Shown here: piece by piece, positions 1,264-30,164 of the stretch
Numbering within the stretch: position 1 is the first letter of the stretch
How the letters are laid out: each line of letters begins with the position of its first letter
DNA from: Acidobacteriota bacterium
Lineage (GTDB): Bacteria > Acidobacteriota > UBA6911 > RPQK01 > JAJDTT01
Assembly (NCBI GenBank): GCA_965222655.1
Contig: CBDCUP010000010.1
Coordinates: 372,848 to 436,847, forward strand
DNA: 64,000 nt
Direction: 5' to 3'
Program-made: the position numbers and the translations under genes
Notes under the pieces: model-generated
What the model was told of the DNA's origin: nothing
The model's database searches: none
What the model saw: only the letters and a program-made list of their open reading frames with translations

Positions 1264-4200
1264 TCATGCTCGCTTTTGGAACCGCGTCGCTATGAACTCC
1301 CTTCCCTCCATTGCCAGGCTGAAGAGGGTTGGGACAAGCACCAGGGTAAAGACGGTGGACACCAGCAGCCCCCCCAGGACCACGCTGCCAAGACCGCGAT
1401 AGAGTTCGCTCCCAGCACCCGGGAAGAGCACCAATGGGGCGAGGCCAAAGACGGTCGTCGTGGTGGTCATGAAGATGGGACGAATCCGCGTGCTGATGGA
1501 CTCCAAAATCGACTCATTGGGCGCGAGTCCTTCGAATCGGATGTGGTTGAGCGATTGATGGACGATGAGGATGGCGTTGTTGACCACGGTGCCCACTAGA
1601 ATGACGAAACCCAACATCGTGAGCACGTCCAGCGCCTGAGGGGGCTGCCCTTGAAACCAGAGATACACACCCAGCAGCCTCAGGCCCAGAATCCCTCCTA
1701 CCGCCCCCAACGGCACACTCAGGATTATTACGAGCGGGTAGAGCCAAGATTCGAACAGTGCAGCCATCAGCAGGTAGGTGATCAACAAAGCAAAAAAGAG
1801 GTTCCAGCGCATCGCCTGCCAGGTGTCCTGTAACTTATCCGCGGTCCCACTCAAGCTGATCAAGATCTCTTGTCCGATAGACTCGCGCTCTCGCAGGGGA
1901 TCGAGGATTCCCTCATTGATGAGATCGATTGCTTCTTCGAGCGCCACTTCAGGAGGTGGAATCACTCGGATCGTGATGGCGCGCAGCCGTTCGCGGTGAT
2001 TGATCTGTTCGGGACCGTAGCTGATATCGATGTTAGCCAGCGAGTCCAGCCGAACGGGAGCACGAACCTCGGGAGTCGCCACATAGAGGCCCTTCAAGTC
2101 CTGGGTTCGACCTTCGTAGTTCGGATTGCCTATGAGGGTCAGGTCTACCCGGTGACCACCGACAAAATAGTCGGCCGCATAGGCTCCATCGACCAATGCG
2201 TCGACCGCATACCCCAGATCTCGGGCACTCACACCCATTTCCTTGGATTGAAGCAGCTTGGGCGTTACGTGCATCTCAGGAGAAGACAGGTCCAGGCTTG
2301 GAATGGGACGAGCCTGGCTGTCGGGAACTACCTGTCCAACCTGGGCCAGAATCTCCTTCCCAAGCTCCACCAGCGGTATCAGCTCTGGCCCGGAAATTTC
2401 GATATCGATATTCCGACCGACTGAGAGCCCGCGCTGGAAGAGACTACTCTGATTGGCCACGATGATGGTCCCTGGCAACTTGTCCTGCAGGCTGCGCACC
2501 AGCGGAATGAGCTCGCCAGCCCGGGTGGGGTCTGCCGATCTCAGGCCCAGGAAGGCCTGCCGGCGTCGGGCCACATAGAAAAAGTCGTGGATGGCAGGAT
2601 AGTCGAGCTGCTGAGCCTCTTCGGAGTCGGGATCGATGTCCCAGTACTTTTGGAGCGCGTCTTCGACGGTCTGTCCCATTTCCATGACGCGGTCCGGATG
2701 GTATCCCGGGGGCGGCATCAAGAGACCGATCACCAGGTTTCGATTGCCACTTGGCAGGTACTCGATCTTGGGCCAAAACAGAAGAGTCAACAGTGTTGCC
2801 AAGCCAACCAGGGCTCCGACAACCACAACGCGGCGCATCAGACCCCCCTGAATCCAGCGATTTACCTGGATGACCTGTCGCACAAACTCAGAAGCCCACC
2901 GGTCCAAACGTGCCAGGAATCTACCGATTCCACCCGAGGAAAGCCGCCCTGAGGGCACAGTTTTCGTGCCCTCTCCCCCTTTTCGGAATAGCCTGGAGGC
3001 CGAAGTAGGAATGACGGTCACCGAGATCAAGAGAGAGAGGCCTACGGCGGAACTGATCGCAAGGGCGATGTCACGAAAGAGCTGACCGGCTTCCTCCTGG
3101 ACGAACAGAATCGGCAGGAACACCGCCAGGGTGGTCAAAGTGGAGGCGACCACTGCCCCCCAAACTTCCTTGGTTGCCCTCTCGGCCGCCTCATACGGAC
3201 TATGTCCCATCTGGTAGTGGCGGTAGATGTTCTCGAGCACAACCACGGCATTGTCGACCAGCATCCCGACCGCGAATGCCAAACCAGCCAGGCTGATCAC
3301 ATTGAGAGATCTCCCCATCAGATGAAGCATCAAAAAGGATCCGATGATGCTGGTGGGAATAGCCAATCCGATCACCAGGGTCGACCGACCGCTGCGCAGG
3401 AACACCAGCAGGACCAGGAGCGTCAACAAGCCCCCGACGACAATGTTCTGGTTGACCAGTCTGATTGCGGAATAGATATAATCGGTCTCGTCGTAGACCT
3501 GAGTCAAGAGAAGACCTCGGTCTCGCAGAATGGTTTCGTTCAGCACCTGCATCTGGCGGCGCAGCCCCTTCATGACTTCCAGAACGTTGGCGCCGGTCTC
3601 TCGCTGTGCATTGATGGCCAGACTGGCAAAGCCGAATCGACGAACGAACCCATCCGGTTTCTTATGGCCCAGGTGGATCCCTCCCGTCACAACCACGTCG
3701 CGGAGATATACCGGTGAACCATCATGAATCGCCAAGACCTGTTCGGCGACTGCTTCGGGTGAACGAAACTGACCCAGGGTGCGGACAACGTAGCGACGCT
3801 TTCCCTCCCAGAAGTCTCCCCCGGAGGTGTCCTTGTTCTGCTCCAGCAGTACTTGTCGAACCGCCTGCATCGTCAGCTGGCGGGCAGCCAGCTTGTGGGG
3901 GTCCAGTACCACCTGGAACTCCAGTTCTCGCCCACCCAGGATGTTCGAATTGGATACGCCGGGAACCCGCTCCAGTCGTGCCTCAATGGCATCTTCGGCA
4001 AACTTTCTCAGCTTCGGGATGTCGATTTTTGAAGGCAGAAGGTCTTCGACCTCGGGAAAGCGGCCCGTCAATCTCCGTAGTCGAAGCTCCGCCAAGCCTG
4101 GATTGGGAGTATCGAGAACCGTATCCAGCTCTCTGGCCAGCTCGGATTCGGGATCGATGTGTCGGAGACTTTCCTGAAAAGCCTCGATCGTCTCGGCCGG

Positions 4201-4641
4201 TGGCATGCGAGCGCTGAGGATGAACCAGGCAATCGCACGATCTGACGCGCTCGAGGTACTGATCACGGGTTCGTCGGCATTCTCGGGGTACTCGGGCACT
4301 TGAGAAAGGCGGCTGTTCACTTTGAGCAGCGCCTCATCCATGTTGATCCCGACCAAGAATTCGAGATTGATGCGCGCCAATGAGTCCTGGCTCTCGGAAC
4401 TCATCTTGGTGACGCCTTCGACTCCTTGCAGCTGCTCTTCCTGTTCCTGGACGATCTCCAGCTCGACTTCCTGCGGGCTCGCTCCAGGCCAGCGAGTCTG
4501 GACCGTGATGGTGGGGATCTCGACTTCCGGCGTCAGCTGCATCGGCATCCGGACCAACGAGATCGACCCGAAGAGCGCCAGAAGGATCACCCCCACGGCA
4601 ATCTTGATCGGATTCTGGAGAAAGGCTTTGATGGGATGCAT
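1264..4641 (-). CDS. RND efflux transporter permease subunit (AcrB/AcrD/AcrF family)
   Basis: 1125 aa; WPGASPQEVE, GMLVDNAVVVLENI, GTVVNNAIL and RIRPIFMTT motifs; about 12 TM segments. Confidence 0.92.
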   Translation of the reverse strand: MHPIKAFLQNPIKIAVGVILLALFGSISLVRMPMQLTPEVEIPTITVQTRWPGASPQEVELEIVQEQEEQLQGVEGVTKMSSESQDSLARINLEFLVGINMDEALLKVNSRLSQVPEYPENADEPVISTSSASDRAIAWFILSARMPPAETIEAFQESLRHIDPESELARELDTVLDTPNPGLAELRLRRLTGRFPEVEDLLPSKIDIPKLRKFAEDAIEARLERVPGVSNSNILGGRELEFQVVLDPHKLAARQLTMQAVRQVLLEQNKDTSGGDFWEGKRRYVVRTLGQFRSPEAVAEQVLAIHDGSPVYLRDVVVTGGIHLGHKKPDGFVRRFGFASLAINAQRETGANVLEVMKGLRRQMQVLNETILRDRGLLLTQVYDETDYIYSAIRLVNQNIVVGGLLTLLVLLVFLRSGRSTLVIGLAIPTSIIGSFLMLHLMGRSLNVISLAGLAFAVGMLVDNAVVVLENIYRHYQMGHSPYEAAERATKEVWGAVVASTLTTLAVFLPILFVQEEAGQLFRDIALAISSAVGLSLLISVTVIPTSASRLFRKGGEGTKTVPSGRLSSGGIGRFLARLDRWASEFVRQVIQVNRWIQGGLMRRVVVVGALVGLATLLTLLFWPKIEYLPSGNRNLVIGLLMPPPGYHPDRVMEMGQTVEDALQKYWDIDPDSEEAQQLDYPAIHDFFYVARRRQAFLGLRSADPTRAGELIPLVRSLQDKLPGTIIVANQSSLFQRGLSVGRNIDIEISGPELIPLVELGKEILAQVGQVVPDSQARPIPSLDLSSPEMHVTPKLLQSKEMGVSARDLGYAVDALVDGAYAADYFVGGHRVDLTLIGNPNYEGRTQDLKGLYVATPEVRAPVRLDSLANIDISYGPEQINHRERLRAITIRVIPPPEVALEEAIDLINEGILDPLRERESIGQEILISLSGTADKLQDTWQAMRWNLFFALLITYLLMAALFESWLYPLVIILSVPLGAVGGILGLRLLGVYLWFQGQPPQALDVLTMLGFVILVGTVVNNAILIVHQSLNHIRFEGLAPNESILESISTRIRPIFMTTTTTVFGLAPLVLFPGAGSELYRGLGSVVLGGLLVSTVFTLVLVPTLFSLAMEGREFIATRFQKRA

Positions 4642-4914: not shown

Positions 4915-6267
4915 TCAACCCTCCTCTGGCTCGACTCTCACGATCCTGACGACGGCGCCGGGGCGCAGTCGCTCATTGCCTTCGACCACAACCCGGTCGC
5001 CCTCCTGCAGCTTGCCGATCACCTGAATCAGCCCACCATCTGCCAGGCCGATCTCCACATCGACCGGGTGAGCTGTAATCTCCTTGTTCTCGGCGTCGTG
5101 CTTGAGAACAAAAACACGCGGCGTCCGCCCGCCTAGAACCAGGGCGTTCTTGGGCACAAGCAAGGAAGAGTGTGGCTTCCCCACCGCCAACAGCACCCGA
5201 GCCAGCATCCCGGCCTTTAGCAGATGGCCGTTGCCCTGACGTGGGTTGTCGACTCGGAGCTTGACCGGAAACGTTCGCGAGCGTAGGTCGGCCTGTGGAA
5301 CGATTCGGACTACCGTTCCCTGCAGCGGCTTCTCCAACTCCTCGAGAATCTTTCCATTCAGTGCTTCGAGTTGTATCGGCTGGATCGTTCCTACTTCGAC
5401 GTAGGAAATGTGGGCTTCCGGAATCGAGATCTCGATTTCTACCGGATCCAGCTCGACCACATCGACGACTGGATCTCCGCGGCGAATCCAAGCCCCTATC
5501 TCGGTGTGCTTCTTGACCACATAACCATCGAAAGGCGCCCGGATGGTGTGCTTTCCGAGAAGATCTTGAATGCGTCGAATCTCCTCCTCCTGGAAACGCA
5601 CCACGGCTCTGGCTTGCGCGATCCTTTCTGGTCGAGGTCCCTGAACGGACAGGTCGTAGGCAGCCTGGGCCCCCAGATGACTCTGTTCTGCGGCAAGCCA
5701 GGACGAGGTCGCTCCGTCCAACTCATCCTGGGATACGGTGCCACTCTCGAAGAGCGACTTCATGCGCTTGTATTGGGAACGAGAGTACTCCATCAGGGCC
5801 CGGGCATCGAGGACCCGAGCCTTGGCCTGAGCGATCTCCTGGGGTTGCGATCCATGCTCTAGTTCCGCCAGTCCCTGTTCTCGGACATCCAGCTGAGCCC
5901 GGGCAGCCGCCAGCTCGATCTCCAGGGTCTTGGAACGGAGACGTGCCACCGGATCACCCTTACGAACTTCTTCTCCGTCGTTGACCAGGACCTGATGCAC
6001 TCGCCCATCGGCACCACTGCCAACAACGGTTCGCCGCGCAGGCATCACGCTTCCTATGAACGTCTCGCCGGCAGTCAGCTCGCGCTGCACAACAGTCGAG
6101 ACCACGACGGGAACACCAGCATCCTGAGCCCATCCAGAGTTGGAAAGGGGCGAACCCAACAGGACTAGGAGAGCAACGTTTATGGTGGTCCGCAATTGCC
6201 GAAAGGAGAAAAGACGAGCTGAAATAACTTGATTGTTTCCTCGGAAAGTCTCCACTGCAGCCCTCAT
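4915..6267 (-). CDS. RND efflux periplasmic adaptor (membrane fusion protein)
   Basis: Lipoyl-like VKKGDPV-type motifs, long coiled coil, IRAPFDG, VEGNERLRPG; upstream of the RND permease. True start probably downstream of the ORF start. Confidence 0.88.
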   Translation of the reverse strand: MRAAVETFRGNNQVISARLFSFRQLRTTINVALLVLLGSPLSNSGWAQDAGVPVVVSTVVQRELTAGETFIGSVMPARRTVVGSGADGRVHQVLVNDGEEVRKGDPVARLRSKTLEIELAAARAQLDVREQGLAELEHGSQPQEIAQAKARVLDARALMEYSRSQYKRMKSLFESGTVSQDELDGATSSWLAAEQSHLGAQAAYDLSVQGPRPERIAQARAVVRFQEEEIRRIQDLLGKHTIRAPFDGYVVKKHTEIGAWIRRGDPVVDVVELDPVEIEISIPEAHISYVEVGTIQPIQLEALNGKILEELEKPLQGTVVRIVPQADLRSRTFPVKLRVDNPRQGNGHLLKAGMLARVLLAVGKPHSSLLVPKNALVLGGRTPRVFVLKHDAENKEITAHPVDVEIGLADGGLIQVIGKLQEGDRVVVEGNERLRPGAVVRIVRVEPEEG

Positions 6268-24851: not shown

Positions 24852-26771
24852 ATGGGAAGTGTTGGAGGTGCTTTTGGCGGTGGTCTGGATGTTCAAGGGA
24901 TCGTCCAACAAATCCTTTTTGTTGAGGCAGCTCCCATCCGGCGACTGGAATCGGAGAAGGGCAGCATCGAGAGTCGCATCAGCGCCTACAACTCGCTGAC
25001 CTCGAAGCTTAGCTCGCTGCAATCCACCATCGAGAGTCTCAATAGCTCCGAGAATTTCGGAGCACGACTGGCCAAGTCCTCTGACGAGGACTCGCTGACT
25101 GCTAACGCTACCAGCGATGCGGCCGTTGGAACCTACCAGATTCAAGTCAGCCGCCTGGCCCTGTTCGACAACTTCGCATCCGATTCCAGTTTCGTTGCCT
25201 CTGATGCCGCTATCGGTACCGGGAGCTTCGATCTCACCGTCGGAACGACGACGACCAACATCACCATAGACTCGACAAGTAACACTTTGGCCGGCCTCAA
25301 GAGCGCCATCAATAATTCCGGAGCAGATGTCAACGCCGCCATCGTGAATGATGGATCAGGCTTCAGGCTCACAATCACCAGCGATACTTCGGGTTCGGAT
25401 AGCGCCATCTCGATCTCGAACAACACCCTACAGCTCGAAGACACCACTCCCTTCACCTTCAGCAGAACTCACAGCATTGCCTCGACCTCCGAACTGGACG
25501 CGAGTCTGACCGTAAACGGCCTCAGCGTCACCGGGAGCAGCAACACGGTCGAGGACGTCATCGAAGGCGTCACCTTGAACCTTTCGGGAACTCCCGCCAG
25601 CACCATTACCCTGACAGTCTCCAACGACACCGAGATGGTCAAGACCAAGATCCAGGAGTTCGTCGACGCCTACAACGACGCCTACAGCTACATCAACGAT
25701 CAGTTCAGCTACAATGCCGCCGCCGAGACCGCGGGGGCTCTCGCAGGAGACGGTACGCTTCGACGAATTCAATCGAGTCTTGCCGCCATCGTGAGTCGCT
25801 CTGTTGATGGGCTAGCAGGCCCCGTCAACAATTTCAGCAGCGCGGGCATCGCGCTTCAGAATGACGGAACACTTGAGGTAGATTCGAGCAAACTGGACAC
25901 CAACCTTGCGGACAATTTCGCCGACATCCAGAAACTTTTTATTGCCTCTGGGGAGGCCACCAACTCGAACGTGGTCTTTTTGGGCGTCGGAGCGACAACC
26001 GAGGCGGGTACCTACGAGATCACAATCACCCAGTTGGCAGAGGCCGCCACAATCACCTCAACCAACGCCATCCCGGGAACTCTTGGAACCGATGAGACAC
26101 TCACTTTTACCCTGGGATCGGAGACCTCAATCTTCAATCTGACCTCAGCCATGACGATCGATGACATCATCAGCGGCCTCACCACTCAGTTTGCGACGGA
26201 CAGTATTGCTCTTACGGCTTCAAAGGATGCCAGCGACCACCTGGTCATAACCTCCAACGACAAGGGCGCGGGGGTGTCTCTAACTGTGGTCTCAGATGTG
26301 GATGGAGTGGGCACGGGAATCGGGACTTCAGGCCTCTCCGACAGCGGTCAGGATCTGGACGGGACTATCAAAGACACTGCGACATCTATAGTTTACGCCG
26401 CCCGGGCCAGCGCAGCAGACATTCTGATCGGCGAGGACGGTCCGGTCAAAGACCTACAGATTCAGTTCCTGGGTTCCACTACCGGCGTTTTCGGGAACCT
26501 TACCGTGAGTCTCGGCTATGCCGAACAGCTCGAACACAACTTGAAGCAGAACACAGATTCCCTGGAAGGTCCGCTTGCCGATGCGGTTACCGGGCTCGAA
26601 GCCTCCATCAGACGCCTCGACGACAACATCAGAGACCTCGAAGACCGCCTGGACCTTAGAGAGCAGGTTCTTCTGCGGCAATTCTCAAAGGCCGATCAAG
26701 CCCTTGCACAACTGGCTAATCTGCAATCAACCATAGGCAGCCAGCTCCAGTCGAGTCTGATACCCAGATAG
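24852..26771 (+). CDS. fliD: Flagellar filament capping protein
   Basis: GLDVQGIVQQI, GTYQIQVSRLA, NTVEDVIEGVTLNL, FVDAYN, C-terminal QFSKAD. Confidence 0.92.
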   Translation: MGSVGGAFGGGLDVQGIVQQILFVEAAPIRRLESEKGSIESRISAYNSLTSKLSSLQSTIESLNSSENFGARLAKSSDEDSLTANATSDAAVGTYQIQVSRLALFDNFASDSSFVASDAAIGTGSFDLTVGTTTTNITIDSTSNTLAGLKSAINNSGADVNAAIVNDGSGFRLTITSDTSGSDSAISISNNTLQLEDTTPFTFSRTHSIASTSELDASLTVNGLSVTGSSNTVEDVIEGVTLNLSGTPASTITLTVSNDTEMVKTKIQEFVDAYNDAYSYINDQFSYNAAAETAGALAGDGTLRRIQSSLAAIVSRSVDGLAGPVNNFSSAGIALQNDGTLEVDSSKLDTNLADNFADIQKLFIASGEATNSNVVFLGVGATTEAGTYEITITQLAEAATITSTNAIPGTLGTDETLTFTLGSETSIFNLTSAMTIDDIISGLTTQFATDSIALTASKDASDHLVITSNDKGAGVSLTVVSDVDGVGTGIGTSGLSDSGQDLDGTIKDTATSIVYAARASAADILIGEDGPVKDLQIQFLGSTTGVFGNLTVSLGYAEQLEHNLKQNTDSLEGPLADAVTGLEASIRRLDDNIRDLEDRLDLREQVLLRQFSKADQALAQLANLQSTIGSQLQSSLIPR

Positions 26772-26798
26772 AAGCAGCAAGAGGAAAGCATCAACAAC

Positions 26799-27218
26799 AT
26801 GGCACACGCACCGAACTACGCAAACTACTACAAGAAAATGGAGATCAACACCGCCGGTCCCTTCGAGCTGATCTTGATCCTTTACCGGGGGGCAATAGAC
26901 AATCTCAAACGCGCCAGACAACACTTTGACCAAGGCAACATCGAACAGAGAGTCCTCTGTCTCAATCGGGCAGTGGGCATGATCGGCGAGCTTCAGTCGG
27001 CTCTCGACTTCGAGCGCGGAAAAGAGATCGCGTCCCACCTGGGGCGGTTGTACAGCTACATGCAGGGTCGCCTGATAGACGTCAATCTGAAAAGGCAACC
27101 AGAGGCCTTGGACGAGGTTGCCAAGCTGCTGGAAATCTTGAAATCTGCGTGGGAAGGAGCCCAACCGCGATCCGTACAGCAGGAGGGCTCGCAGCTCTCA
27201 GGGGTCGCCGCCAGGTGA
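26799..27218 (+). CDS. fliS: Flagellar export chaperone
   Basis: INTAGPFELILILYRGAI, LQSALDFERGKEIASHLGRLYSYM. Confidence 0.9.
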   Translation: MAHAPNYANYYKKMEINTAGPFELILILYRGAIDNLKRARQHFDQGNIEQRVLCLNRAVGMIGELQSALDFERGKEIASHLGRLYSYMQGRLIDVNLKRQPEALDEVAKLLEILKSAWEGAQPRSVQQEGSQLSGVAAR

Positions 27219-27574
27219 GCAACGCCTTCCAACCCTACCAAACCCTTACCAAGCTGCTTCAGAGTCAGGCAAGGGCGCTCGAGGTGAAGGATACCCAGAG
27301 ACTCGAGGCGATCCGCCCACTGATCGAGAAGTACTCGGGACGAATCGGCGAACAGGAGTCCGAACTGCAACACCTCACCTCAGATGAAAAAGTAGTTCTG
27401 AGGCGCCTCTTGACAGACATTCAGCAACAGATCACGAGCAACCAGGAAGGCTGGAAGCACTATCGCGGCGAGCTAGCCAAAGCTCGTTCCCAGCTGCGCG
27501 AAACACGCCGCTTCGCTCAACAGGTCTCAAGTATCTCCTCACCAAGAAGACCCCGCTTTCAGCAGACCGGGTAG
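27215..27574 (+). CDS. Helical protein after fliS (FliT-like by position)
   Basis: GTG start overlapping the fliS stop (GTGA); predicted helical. Assignment is from synteny only. Confidence 0.5.
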   Translation: MSNAFQPYQTLTKLLQSQARALEVKDTQRLEAIRPLIEKYSGRIGEQESELQHLTSDEKVVLRRLLTDIQQQITSNQEGWKHYRGELAKARSQLRETRRFAQQVSSISSPRRPRFQQTG

Positions 27575-27993
27575 TCCGGGGGTACACCTATGAGTGTCCC
27601 GACGTGCTGCTGACACTGGTGAGAAACCCCCATCTGCTCGACTACCTGTTTCCTCAACCACCCGAACGACCGGTCTGGCCATCGGCTACTGCGCTAGAGA
27701 CCCCTTGGTCGAGAAAAAATTCACAAACTGATCAAGTTTCCTGCCTCTGTGTGATGTAGTTTCCAAAGAGACCGCTTCAGCGGTCTGGCGCGAAGCGTAT
27801 TAGACCCGGCCTTCAGGCCGGGGTCAGCTGCGGGCCATCCCTCCGGAGGGCCTTTCAAGGTCCTTCTCGAACCGCGGCTTTAGCCATCTTCGACCCGGAA
27901 CCTGGCTGAAGCCTGTATTCGAGAAGCCCGCTAAAGCGGGCTCCGGCATCTGCTTGCTCGCCCACCCGGCCCTGAACGCCGGGTCTAATACGC

Positions 27994-29871
27994 GCGTGCC
28001 GGGCACGCGCGCTGTCTGGGAGGGTGCAAGTCCCTCCGCCAACCTGATGGAGGTGAAGGCTAGCGAAGCACAAGGGCGTCACCGCGAGGTGGGGTCTGAA
28101 GGAAGTGTGGAGCAAACGTACGAGCCGACGCACAGAAACTGGATAAGTAGGCGCCAAGGTCGGACGAGTCAGCGCGTGGTGACGAAGTCCATATCCATCA
28201 AGATCCGGAAGCGTAAATCCAGCGGTTGTGTACGGAAAGACAGCGTCCTTACCCCGGGAGGCCTGGGAGGCTGTCCCTTGAAGGACAGGTGGAATCGTAA
28301 GGTTTCATAGCGCCCTCCAGGAGTCCGCAGAGGGCATAGTAGGTGGGGAAACTCACGGAAGGCCCGAACGGTAGGGAGAGGTTAGTAGGTGTCCAATCTT
28401 AAGGGTGATCAACAGAGGCAGAGAAGTCCGAAGCGGACCTCAAACCGAACAGCTGGGGTGCGGCCCCAGGGAAGCGGGGAGACGGCGGATTCATCCTTAG
28501 CGAAAGGGCGAACCGAAGGCCCGATGTTTGGTGAGAACGTCATGGAGGAGATATGCGAGCGAAGTAATCTGGAAGCGGCGTTGAGACGAGTGCGAGCGAA
28601 CCGAGGGGGTCCGGGAGTGGACGGGATGACCGTCGATGAACTGCCGGAGTACCTGAAGGCGAACTGGCGGTCGATCAAAGAACAGCTGCTGTGCGGGGAG
28701 TATCAACCGCGACCTGTCAAGGGGGTGGAGATTCCGAAACCGGGAAGGAAAGACAAGCGAAGACTCGGGATTCCGTGTGTGATCGATCGATTTATCGAGC
28801 AAGCGATGCTGCAAGTGCTGCAACGCAAGTGGGATCGCACGTTCTCAGAGTCCAGCTATGGCTATCGACCGGGGCGCAGGGCTCATCAGGCAGTGGCGCG
28901 TGCCCAAGACTACGTGAAAGCGGGCTACGGGACCGTGGTCGATCTCGATTTAGAAAAGTTTTTCGATCGAGTTCACCACGATCGTTTGCTGAGCCGGCTG
29001 GCGCGGGAGATTGGGGACAAGCGGGTACTGAAGTTGATCCGAGCGTATCTAAGCGCGGGGATTCTGCGGTACGGACTGGTGAGTGCGCCGACGGAAGGGA
29101 CGCCGCAAGGCAGCCCCCTGTCCCCCTTTCTCTCGAACGTGGTTCTGGATGAGCTGGACGAGGAACTGGAGCGCCGGGGTCCCCGTTTTGTCCGCTATGC
29201 CGATGACTGCAACATTTATGTGCGGAGTCGGCGGGCGGGGGAGCGAGTGATGGCGAGTGTGAGCCGGTTTGTGAGCCAGCGACTGAAACTGCGTGTCAAT
29301 CGGGAGAAGAGTGCGGTGGATGAGCCCCAGAAGCGGAAGTTCTTAGGCTTCACGTTCACGGGAGGCCGATCGCCCAACCGGCGCAAGATTGCGCCGGAAT
29401 CGATCCAGCGGTTTCGATCCCGGGTGCGTCGTTTAACGCGGCGTAACCGGGGGATCAGCCTGGAGCAGCGTGTGGACGAATTGTCCCGCTACCTCCGGGG
29501 CTGGATTGGATACTTTGGGTACGTCGAGAGCCCCTGGGTCCTGCGGGGTCTGGACAGCTGGATTCGTCGTCGCCTGCGCAGCGTCCAATGGAAACAGTGG
29601 AAGGTCTACCGGCGACGCCAGGCGGAGTTGATCCGGCTGGGCGTGAGTCGGGATATGGCCCAGCGGACCGCGTGGAGCGTCAAGGGCCCTTGGGCCCTCA
29701 GTCAAGCGCCCGGGGTCCGGATAGCGCTTCCGAATGCTTATTTCGATCGGTTAGGTCTTCCTCGGTTGGCTAATCATCAGCGCATTCAACCCTAGCGAAC
29801 CGCCTTGGTACGGACCCGTATGCCTGGTGGTGTGGGAGGGGAAGGCCCGTGAGGGCTTCCCCTATCCCGAG
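27994..29871 (+). mobile_element. Group II intron, class C (IIC)-like, 1878 nt
   Basis: DI motifs gggtgcaagtccc and gcgaggtggggtctgaaggaag; DV gaacCGCcttggtacggacccgtatgcctggtggtgt; DVI with bulged A at 29864; boundaries fixed by exon reconstitution. Confidence 0.92.
28389..29795 (+). CDS. ltrA: Group II intron reverse transcriptase/maturase (no endonuclease domain)
   Basis: GGPGVDG, RRLGIPCVIDR, SYGYRPGR, DLDLEKFFD, GTPQGSPLSP, RYADD; C-terminal maturase X domain. Confidence 0.95.
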   Translation: MSNLKGDQQRQRSPKRTSNRTAGVRPQGSGETADSSLAKGRTEGPMFGENVMEEICERSNLEAALRRVRANRGGPGVDGMTVDELPEYLKANWRSIKEQLLCGEYQPRPVKGVEIPKPGRKDKRRLGIPCVIDRFIEQAMLQVLQRKWDRTFSESSYGYRPGRRAHQAVARAQDYVKAGYGTVVDLDLEKFFDRVHHDRLLSRLAREIGDKRVLKLIRAYLSAGILRYGLVSAPTEGTPQGSPLSPFLSNVVLDELDEELERRGPRFVRYADDCNIYVRSRRAGERVMASVSRFVSQRLKLRVNREKSAVDEPQKRKFLGFTFTGGRSPNRRKIAPESIQRFRSRVRRLTRRNRGISLEQRVDELSRYLRGWIGYFGYVESPWVLRGLDSWIRRRLRSVQWKQWKVYRRRQAELIRLGVSRDMAQRTAWSVKGPWALSQAPGVRIALPNAYFDRLGLPRLANHQRIQP

Positions 29872-30164
29872 TTCGCGCCAGACCGCTGAAGCGACCTCCC
29901 TGAACGGGACACATCCACCCAAGGTCAGCGTTCCTCGGCGGTATGAGGTCGGTCGTGAGGCACCAAATCCAAGACTGGCCGCCCTATTCGGGTTTTCAGA
30001 ATCCACTTTCGAAAAGTGGCCCTCCTGATGCCATGCCCCCCAAGGGCAACATCTCGGAGAGCTGGCTTGAGAGGATTCACCTGGATGTATATCGGCCAAA
30101 CCGGAAAAGTGAAATCAAAGTTTGATCGTCCGACAAAGGGAACAGTACGCGGTTATATAGTACG

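Follow-up and report, generated by a model that had tools for sequence, protein, structure and literature searches.

Can a group II intron that ends in a purine still hold its 3′ splice site in place? The question is raised by a stretch of 64,000 nucleotides (nt) from contig CBDCUP010000010.1 of an Acidobacteriota bacterium (hereafter, the window), in which positions 27994–29871 have the organization of a group IIC intron except that the intron starts with GCGUG and ends with CCCGAG, both of which can be read directly in the sequence. In group II introns, the 3′ splice site is positioned by a small number of tertiary contacts, among them the γ–γ′ base pair. The γ nucleotide of this pair has been described as a purine that pairs with a terminal pyrimidine, with A–U and G–C as the two common natural states, and this is the basis of the AY consensus for the last two nucleotides; variations on the terminal consensus have been reported (PMC4238363). 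An original prediction, made from the window sequence alone, held that the unusual 3′ end is matched by a change of γ in J2/3, the segment between domains II and III, and that the intron is a functional variant rather than a decaying one. From a comparison with its relatives, we conclude with high confidence that 27994–29871 is a mobile bacterial group IIC intron in which the γ–γ′ pair was flipped to C–G, so that the intron ends in AG. The intron is a variant, natural but uncommon, of an element that is well understood, and not an element of a new kind or class.

The argument depends on the exact position of the intron ends, which are fixed by four lines of evidence, namely, an inverted repeat that is restored when the insert is removed, repeat arms that occur elsewhere without interruption, the alignment with about 130 relatives, and covariation between the intron-binding site in the 5′ exon (IBS1) and the exon-binding site in the intron (EBS1). 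When the insert is removed, the joined flanks 27978–27993 and 29872–29893 read GCCGGGTCTAATACGCTTCGCGCCAGACCGCTGAAGCG (with the junction marked, GCCGGGTCTAATACGC^TTCGCGCCAGACCGCTGAAGCG), which is the exact reverse complement of 27773–27810 over 38 nt. The regenerated 38-mer has a single match in the window, and none of the 100 shuffled sequences matched. The boundaries cannot slide, since G27994 is unlike T29872 and C27993 is unlike G29871, and only one pair of ends is compatible with a perfect repeat, as originally predicted. The ligated exons expected from the proposed junction C27993–T29872 would thus read ...TCTAATACGC^TTCGCGCC.... A repeat finder reports the two halves of the interrupted arm separately (27795–27824 with 27964–27993, and 27768–27794 with 29872–29898), and 27760–27993 joined to 29872–29910 folds into one long hairpin (−182.8 kcal/mol) with a perfectly paired basal stem of 38 bp.

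Other copies agree with these boundaries. Among five uninterrupted repeat arms, four read (A/G)CGC^TTCGCGC (the left arm in the window, two arms in L089, and one in L081, where L### designates loci of relatives). Furthermore, the 3′ flank of L084 holds an empty target of the type occupied in L086 and L088, cacggc^ggcctgg, which fits only if the terminal G belongs to the intron. The terminal G of the window intron also aligns to the terminal T of the motif ...CTAT(C/G)CCGAT in about 150 relatives.

With the ends placed in this way, the γ–γ′ pair can be followed across the family. The J2/3 segment of the window reads GAGTC-CGC-AGAGGGCATAGT, with C at 28326, which in the alignment to the Rfam model RF01998 falls on the A of the consensus GUC-AGC-AGA; profile alignments built from about 160 relatives place it in the same column, in agreement with the predicted assignment of C28326 as γ. 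The account of the O. iheyensis intron on which the prediction drew, pairing of the A of AGC with the terminal U, is correct: in that intron, J2/3 consists of A287-G288-C289, A287 pairs with U412, the catalytic triad is C358-G359-C360, and the branch-site nucleotide is A406 (PMC3669008). The relatives were collected with iterated profiles, which replaced a single-sequence nhmmer search that was too insensitive (six matches). In their alignments, the γ column contains A 153 times, C 10 times, and G once. Covariation was assessed in 121 distinct introns, the diagnostic segments of which were aligned over 63 columns without gaps; γ and the last nucleotide pair in all 121, as A–U in 114, C–G in six, and G–U in one. 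Taken together, the structure in these 63 columns scored above every one of 500 shuffles and above all slid controls.

The same relationship holds when individual introns are considered. All 16 IIC introns with C at γ and the 3′ end present on the contig terminate in G. Introns with C at γ and a terminal G are found in the window, L081, L083, L084/85, L086/87, L088, L089, L093, L176, and L177–182, whereas all introns with A at γ end in U. No mismatched intermediate, that is, no C/U or A/G combination of γ and γ′, was found among the approximately 130 introns examined, and none of the homologs retains the γ C while ending in AY. The proposal that a change from A–U to C–G keeps γ–γ′ intact is therefore borne out by all distinct relatives, and C28326–G29871 probably acts as γ–γ′ in both exon ligation and reverse splicing. 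A single relative, L045 (γ at 511, intron end at 2051), combines a γ G with a terminal U as a G–U wobble, which may be an intermediate-type state. A pattern scan of viral contigs for a 3′ end of the window type yielded no matches. No report of group II introns that start with GCGUG or terminate in G was found in the searchable literature; curated intron databases were outside the scope of this search, and an earlier description is possible.

The C–G introns do not form a single lineage. One clade includes the window intron and its same-site copies L081–L083 and L089, together with L084/85, L086/87, and L088, all at different sites; the second consists of L093, L176, and L177–182. In neighbor-joining trees of the intron-encoded proteins (IEPs) with 100 bootstrap replicates, the window clade and the L093/L176/L177 clade were each recovered with 100% support. 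The window clade grouped with the A–U introns L170, L171, L173, L175, L090, L091, and L092 (100%), and this larger group was joined by L094 (99%). In contrast, the two C–G clades were sisters in 0 of the 100 replicates. Given that the C–G clades are never sisters and that the window clade is nested among A–U introns, at least two coordinated switches are implied. Two coordinated changes from A–U to C–G are the most parsimonious scenario, the alternative being one switch followed by three coordinated reversions; under either reading, several double changes would have occurred without surviving intermediates.

A third G-terminal case is provided by L202, a distant group II intron on the viral contig IMGVR_UViG_3300022745_000045 (approximately 545–2640), of which the IEP is 45% identical to that of the window intron. 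L202 has an AGC triad in domain V (DV), and its J2/3 reads C-G-A. Its 5′ end, GUGCG, is backed by pairing of IBS1 GCA with EBS1 UGC, and its 3′ end is CUACUCGAG (GAG). We suggest, with confidence that stops a little short of evenly balanced, that the reversed γ–γ′ pair, in which J2/3 contributes the pyrimidine and the 3′ end the purine, has been stably adopted and has arisen repeatedly, in two IIC clades and in this distant intron with an AGC triad, and that it creates a 3′ AG splice site resembling the one in nuclear introns.

The 5′ end differs in its history from the 3′ end. The original prediction named both departures from the consensus; compensation by γ applies to the 3′ G, whereas GCGUG turns out to be a separate trait. 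GCGUG is common to the whole window clade and also occurs in L173–175, L091, and L093/L176/L177–182, and because C at nt 2 accompanies an A–U γ–γ′ pair in L173–175 and L091, it is not part of the γ–γ′ compensation. That GCGTG is a true 5′ end is confirmed by a tandem pair in L173, in which the second copy starts with GCGTG directly after the terminal T of the first.

All 16 IIC introns with the C–G pair carry C2. The possibility that C2 is a prerequisite for the flip was considered and is weakened by L202, which combines U2 with C–G, the origins being too few for statistics. In molecular dynamics simulations, γ of the O. iheyensis intron (A287) pairs with U2 before the second step (PMC7275048). 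The observed combinations of nt 2, γ, and γ′ are (U,A,U), (C,A,U), (C,C,G), (U,G,U), and (U,C,G); the pair between nt 2 and γ is lost in (C,A,U), (C,C,G), and (U,C,G) and is only a wobble in (U,G,U).

Apart from the consensus termini GUGYG and AY, all features of IIC introns that we examined are present in the window intron: an IEP of class C, domain I, J2/3 with domain III, DV and domain VI (DVI), a CGC triad facing an xGC J2/3, a γ–γ′ pair, a stem-loop in the 5′ exon with a short IBS1–EBS1 pairing, a bulged A in DVI, and the penultimate A29870. Domain I was detected with Rfam RF02001 (117.9 bits, E = 1.5e-23) and the J2/3 region with RF01998 (44.7 bits). The IEP open reading frame (ORF) stops 3 nt before DV, and its product has only the Pfam domains RVT_1 and GIIM, without an endonuclease domain. 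Its best match in the PDB is the reverse transcriptase (RT) of GsI-IIC (6AR1; E = 9e-143), aligned over the full length (residues 7–416 versus 4–411), followed by 7UIM (E = 1.2e-101), which is deposited only as a group II intron RT/maturase. More distant relatives in genomes and metagenomes begin with GTGTGCC right after a GC-rich hairpin and a T-run, the classical IIC location, and relatives show the same geometry as the window, with a stem-loop and a spacer of about 8–10 nt or a T-run immediately before the intron.

The catalytic domains at the 3′ end are likewise well defined. A consensus fold of DV and DVI from 90 relatives contains 27 pairs, of which 14 show compensatory changes. The assertion that IEP, DV, and DVI look intact stands for the full-length ORF, the CGC triad, and the bulged A29864; DV itself is not fully intact, owing to a mismatch between U29805 and U29825. 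At this position of DV (pair 12–33), the 90 relatives have GC in 77 cases, AU in eight, CG in four, and UU in one, the window. The window has T29805 where its clade has A; of the copies at the same site, L081 and L083 also have this T, whereas L089 keeps A–U.

Exon recognition varies with the target. The nucleotide at IBS1(−1) pairs with the third base of the 8-nt EBS1 loop in 121 of 121 distinct relatives, through six types of pairs. IBS1 and EBS1 covary in one register, with different EBS1 sequences at different targets: ACGC with GCGU in the window, CAC with GUG in L084, GGC with GCC in L086/L088, and CCUA with UAGG in L093. For the nucleotide with which the 3′ exon begins (IBS3), the candidate EBS3 in column 34 forms A–U in the window, L089, and L084, C–G in L086/88, and U–A in L093; the EBS3 of the O. 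iheyensis intron is A223 (PMC3669008).

Several lines of evidence indicate that this is a working lineage. The ratio of nonsynonymous to synonymous substitution rates (dN/dS) for the IEP within the window clade is 0.17–0.23, at dS of 0.2–0.5, indicative of purifying selection, and the clade occupies at least four independent insertion sites (window, L084, L086, and L088). The IEP of the window is identical to a protein seen on other contigs (P0001). The 90% identity cluster of this protein comprises 133 proteins, of which many are truncated (181–389 aa) and several share the same Mb-scale contigs; the host genomes would thus contain an intron family in multiple copies, many of them degraded. 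Thus, the presence at several insertion sites, the retuning of EBS1 to targets, purifying selection on the IEP, and compensatory changes in the ribozyme helices all argue that the lineage is functional, and the available data support the view that it would behave as an active retroelement carrying GCGUG and AG ends. The claim of a functional variant holds in this sense for the lineage; the window copy itself, with its U–U mismatch in DV, may be somewhat impaired, although it probably still splices.

Some observations weigh against this interpretation in whole or in part. The U29805–U29825 mismatch is the sole broken pair at its position among the 90 relatives. The Rfam model for DV and DVI, RF00029, had no match in the window, even at E ≤ 10. 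One diverged uninterrupted arm (L089, 5843–5875) reads ACGC-G-TTCGC and would fit a terminal G that is exonic. The EBS3 candidate is inconsistent across relatives, with U–U in L090, L094, and L174/175, and only 11.6% of cells pair family-wide; an alternative partner for the usual T or C is an invariant neighboring G. Finally, independent origins of C–G are few, two or three. With respect to RF00029, decay was considered as the cause of the miss and was rejected, because the model also fails on L032, L084, L086, L170, L173, and L093, and on all relatives with a 13-nt DV 5′ strand, which is one nt longer. L001 barely passes (44.7 bits against a threshold of 40), and in this intron the last position of the model falls on the T taken as the last intron base. 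The miss is thus explained by the extra nucleotide that this subfamily carries in the 5′ strand of DV.

Among the alternatives, the one that we take most seriously, as a real if minority possibility, accepts that the lineage is functional and holds that the window copy is a resident, vertically inherited one, partly disabled by the U–U mismatch in DV, so that it splices or moves poorly or not at all. The same insertion with the same flanks is present in L081–L083 (98.5–99.6% identity) and in the more diverged L089 (92% identity including flanks), which indicates vertical inheritance at this site; the mismatch is the only broken pair at its position among the relatives, whereas L089 keeps A–U; the IEP of L089 is truncated or frameshifted (416 aa, RVT_1 only); and many members of the P0001 cluster are truncated. 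However, the window has a full-length IEP ORF, with a product identical to the protein on other contigs, the remaining ribozyme motifs are all intact, and a lone internal U–U located two pairs above the triad need not abolish catalysis.

The two other explanations concern the C–G pair itself. If the 3′ boundary were off by one, the intron would end at A29870 and G29871 would be the first exon nucleotide, a fixed IBS3 of G; the extra junction G in the diverged L089 arm (TACGC-G-TTCGC) could be read in this way. This is very improbable, given that the left arm in the window and three more arms lack the G, that the empty site in L084 fits only an intronic G, that about 150 relatives have their terminal U in the alignment column of this G, and that the G is constant at all sites while the next base varies between T, G, and A. 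Moreover, such a shift would leave the A-to-C change of γ in every G-bearing IIC intron unexplained. Slightly less probable still is random decay of a dead intron, with the γ C and the 3′ G as unrelated mutations. The departures from GUGYG and AY together with the RF00029 miss could suggest degeneration, but an identical set of three states is fixed throughout a clade with 80–100% IEP identity at no fewer than four sites and recurs in the second clade, selection on the IEP is purifying, EBS1 has changed to match new targets, and single-mutant intermediates are absent among the approximately 130 introns. The different flanks also exclude the clade members as assembly duplicates of one locus.

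The mechanism that we propose on the preferred reading, a mobile IIC intron with a flipped γ–γ′ pair, is as follows. The intron, in sense orientation downstream of a putative flagellar gene cluster, would have retrohomed into the descending strand of a long DNA hairpin, after a small stem-loop, in line with the usual IIC target logic. The 5′ exon would be chosen by the hairpin and by the 4-bp IBS1–EBS1 pairing (27990–27993 with 28174–28177), and the 3′ splice site would be set by the geometry of DVI with branch A29864, by γ–γ′, and probably by EBS3–IBS3 (A28240–U29872). The γ–γ′ pair would have flipped from A–U to C28326–G29871, such that the intron ends in AG instead of AY, with U2 changing to C separately. 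The features of the locus are compiled in Table 1.

Table 1. Features of the group IIC intron and its insertion site; positions are those of the window
Feature	Position	Strand	Evidence or remark
Palindromic element, left arm	27768–27824	.	Complementary to 27964–27993 and 29872–29898; inverted repeats I1, I2
Local stem-loop just 5′ of the insertion site	27964–27984	+	Stem 27965–27970/27978–27983, then 9–10 nt spacer; IIC-type 5′-exon hairpin motif
IBS1 ACGC, last four nt of the 5′ exon	27990–27993	+	Pairs with EBS1 28174–28177
Complete group IIC intron, 1878 nt, 5′ GCGUG to CCCGAG 3′	27994–29871	+	
5′ terminal motif GCGUG (consensus GUGYG, U2 to C)	27994–27998	+	Column-for-column alignment with GTGTG of relatives
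Domain I core	28078–28248	+	Rfam group-II-D1D4-3
EBS1 GCGU, in the 8-nt loop of hairpin 28168–28183	28174–28177	+	
Candidate EBS3, A28240	28240	+	Proposed partner T29872
Domain II, J2/3, domain III	28286–28364	+	Rfam group-II-D1D4-1
J2/3 triplet CGC, C28326 = γ (consensus AGC)	28326–28328	+	Rfam alignment
Intron-encoded RT/maturase, 423 aa, domain IV	28526–29795	+	ATG at 28526; ORF open from GTG 28389 (468 codons)
DV	29799–29831	+	RNAalifold consensus of 90 relatives
CGC catalytic triad	29801–29803	+	Pairs with G29829, U29828, G29827
DV loop GACC	29813–29816	+	
DV bulge	~29820–29821	+	
DVI	29833–29869	+	8 of 14 consensus pairs with compensatory changes
Bulged branch-site A of DVI, 7 nt from the 3′ end	29864	+	Consensus fold, 90 relatives
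3′ tail	A29870–G29871	+	
3′ terminal dinucleotide AG, G29871 = γ′ (consensus AY)	29870–29871	+	Alignment to the terminal T of ...CCGAT
3′ exon (distal right arm of the palindrome); T29872 = IBS3	29872–29898	+	

About 420 nt upstream of the intron, and on the same strand, are three ORFs (24852–27574): two that by their sequences resemble the flagellar filament cap protein FliD (639 aa) and the chaperone FliS (139 aa), and after them one of 141 aa. The target element is a palindrome of about 230 bp with arms of about 57 nt and is single-copy in the window. Related arms recur at 2256–2284, 5738–5767, and 5843–5875 in L089 and at 620–647 in L081, and for this reason the element appears to represent a dispersed repeat family, resembling repetitive extragenic palindromic sequences or miniature inverted-repeat transposable elements. 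In L084, L086, and L088, the target is a different palindromic repeat, ggtctccaggcc...ggcctggagacc.

Additional observations were made on individual copies. In L089, the IEP (3001–4367) is disrupted, with a 416-aa product containing only RVT_1 followed by a separate 51-aa ORF; this copy is decaying. L088 contains, at 1270–1420, a 5′ fragment of a second copy (91% identity) that breaks off after about 150 nt, occupies a homologous target (ttcgagcctttggctcgacggacggc^), and carries a G3-to-C change (GCCTGCC). A gene for a Y1 transposase of the IS200/IS605 type (PF01797) is located directly upstream of related IIC introns in L173, L175, L178, L179, and L180. In L177–L182, the 5′ flanks are near-identical and the 3′ flanks differ (three variants), which suggests that an intron of this type sits at the hairpin end of an insertion sequence and travels with it. 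Tandem copies, in which the second begins right after the last nucleotide of the first, were identified in L173 (2554/2555), L004 (4328/4329), L013, and L025 and are consistent with insertion of IIC introns after DVI, which would serve as their stem-loop target. Nested copies also seem to be present in L013.

The window intron can be compared with several well-characterized systems. With the O. iheyensis IIC intron (O.i.I1; for example, 4FAQ), it shares the domain layout, an xGC J2/3 facing a CGC triad, a two-nt DV bulge, an EBS3 A (a candidate in the window intron) with a 3′-exon U, and γ as the first J2/3 nucleotide paired with the last intron nucleotide (PMC3669008). It differs in having GCGUG...AG and C28326–G29871 where the O. 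iheyensis intron has GUGUG...AU and A287–U412, in containing an ORF in domain IV, and in a DV 5′ strand that is one nt longer. B.h.I1 of Bacillus halodurans and GsI-IIC of Geobacillus stearothermophilus have the same IEP class without an endonuclease domain, insert just 3′ of a DNA stem-loop, and use a short IBS1 (PMC1702495, PMC4424553), and the location after a hairpin and a T-run is shared by the more distant relatives of the window intron. By contrast, the targets of the window intron and of L084, L086, and L088 are arms of palindromic repeats without a T-run, and the termini in the window are non-canonical.

RmInt1 of Sinorhizobium meliloti, a class D intron, resembles the window intron in being mobile despite a deviation from AY at the 3′ end, and mutations have shown that its γ–γ′ pair matters for the second step of splicing (PMC4238363). 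The deviation in RmInt1 is penultimate (CC), with a purine at γ and a pyrimidine at γ′ (G–C), whereas the window intron keeps the penultimate A and reverses the polarity of the pair. Finally, spliceosomal GC-AG introns have the same terminal dinucleotides, 5′ GC and 3′ AG. Group II and spliceosomal introns are considered to be related, and an equivalent of γ–γ′ in the spliceosome has not been reported (PMC4424553); the likeness is one of letters only.

To conclude, these introns have practical as well as mechanistic implications. Pipelines that locate intron boundaries by requiring GUGYG...AY (PMC4028801), as well as the Rfam DV/DVI model, will mis-call or miss introns of this type. The C–G lineages offer ready material for studies of 3′ splice-site selection and a natural test of the proposed first-step pairing between nt 2 and γ (PMC7275048). 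For group II introns in general, a 3′ AG is compatible with their chemistry, and the retention of a polarity-reversed pair through diversification and new insertions is natural evidence that the pairing, rather than the identity of the bases, is what is selected.

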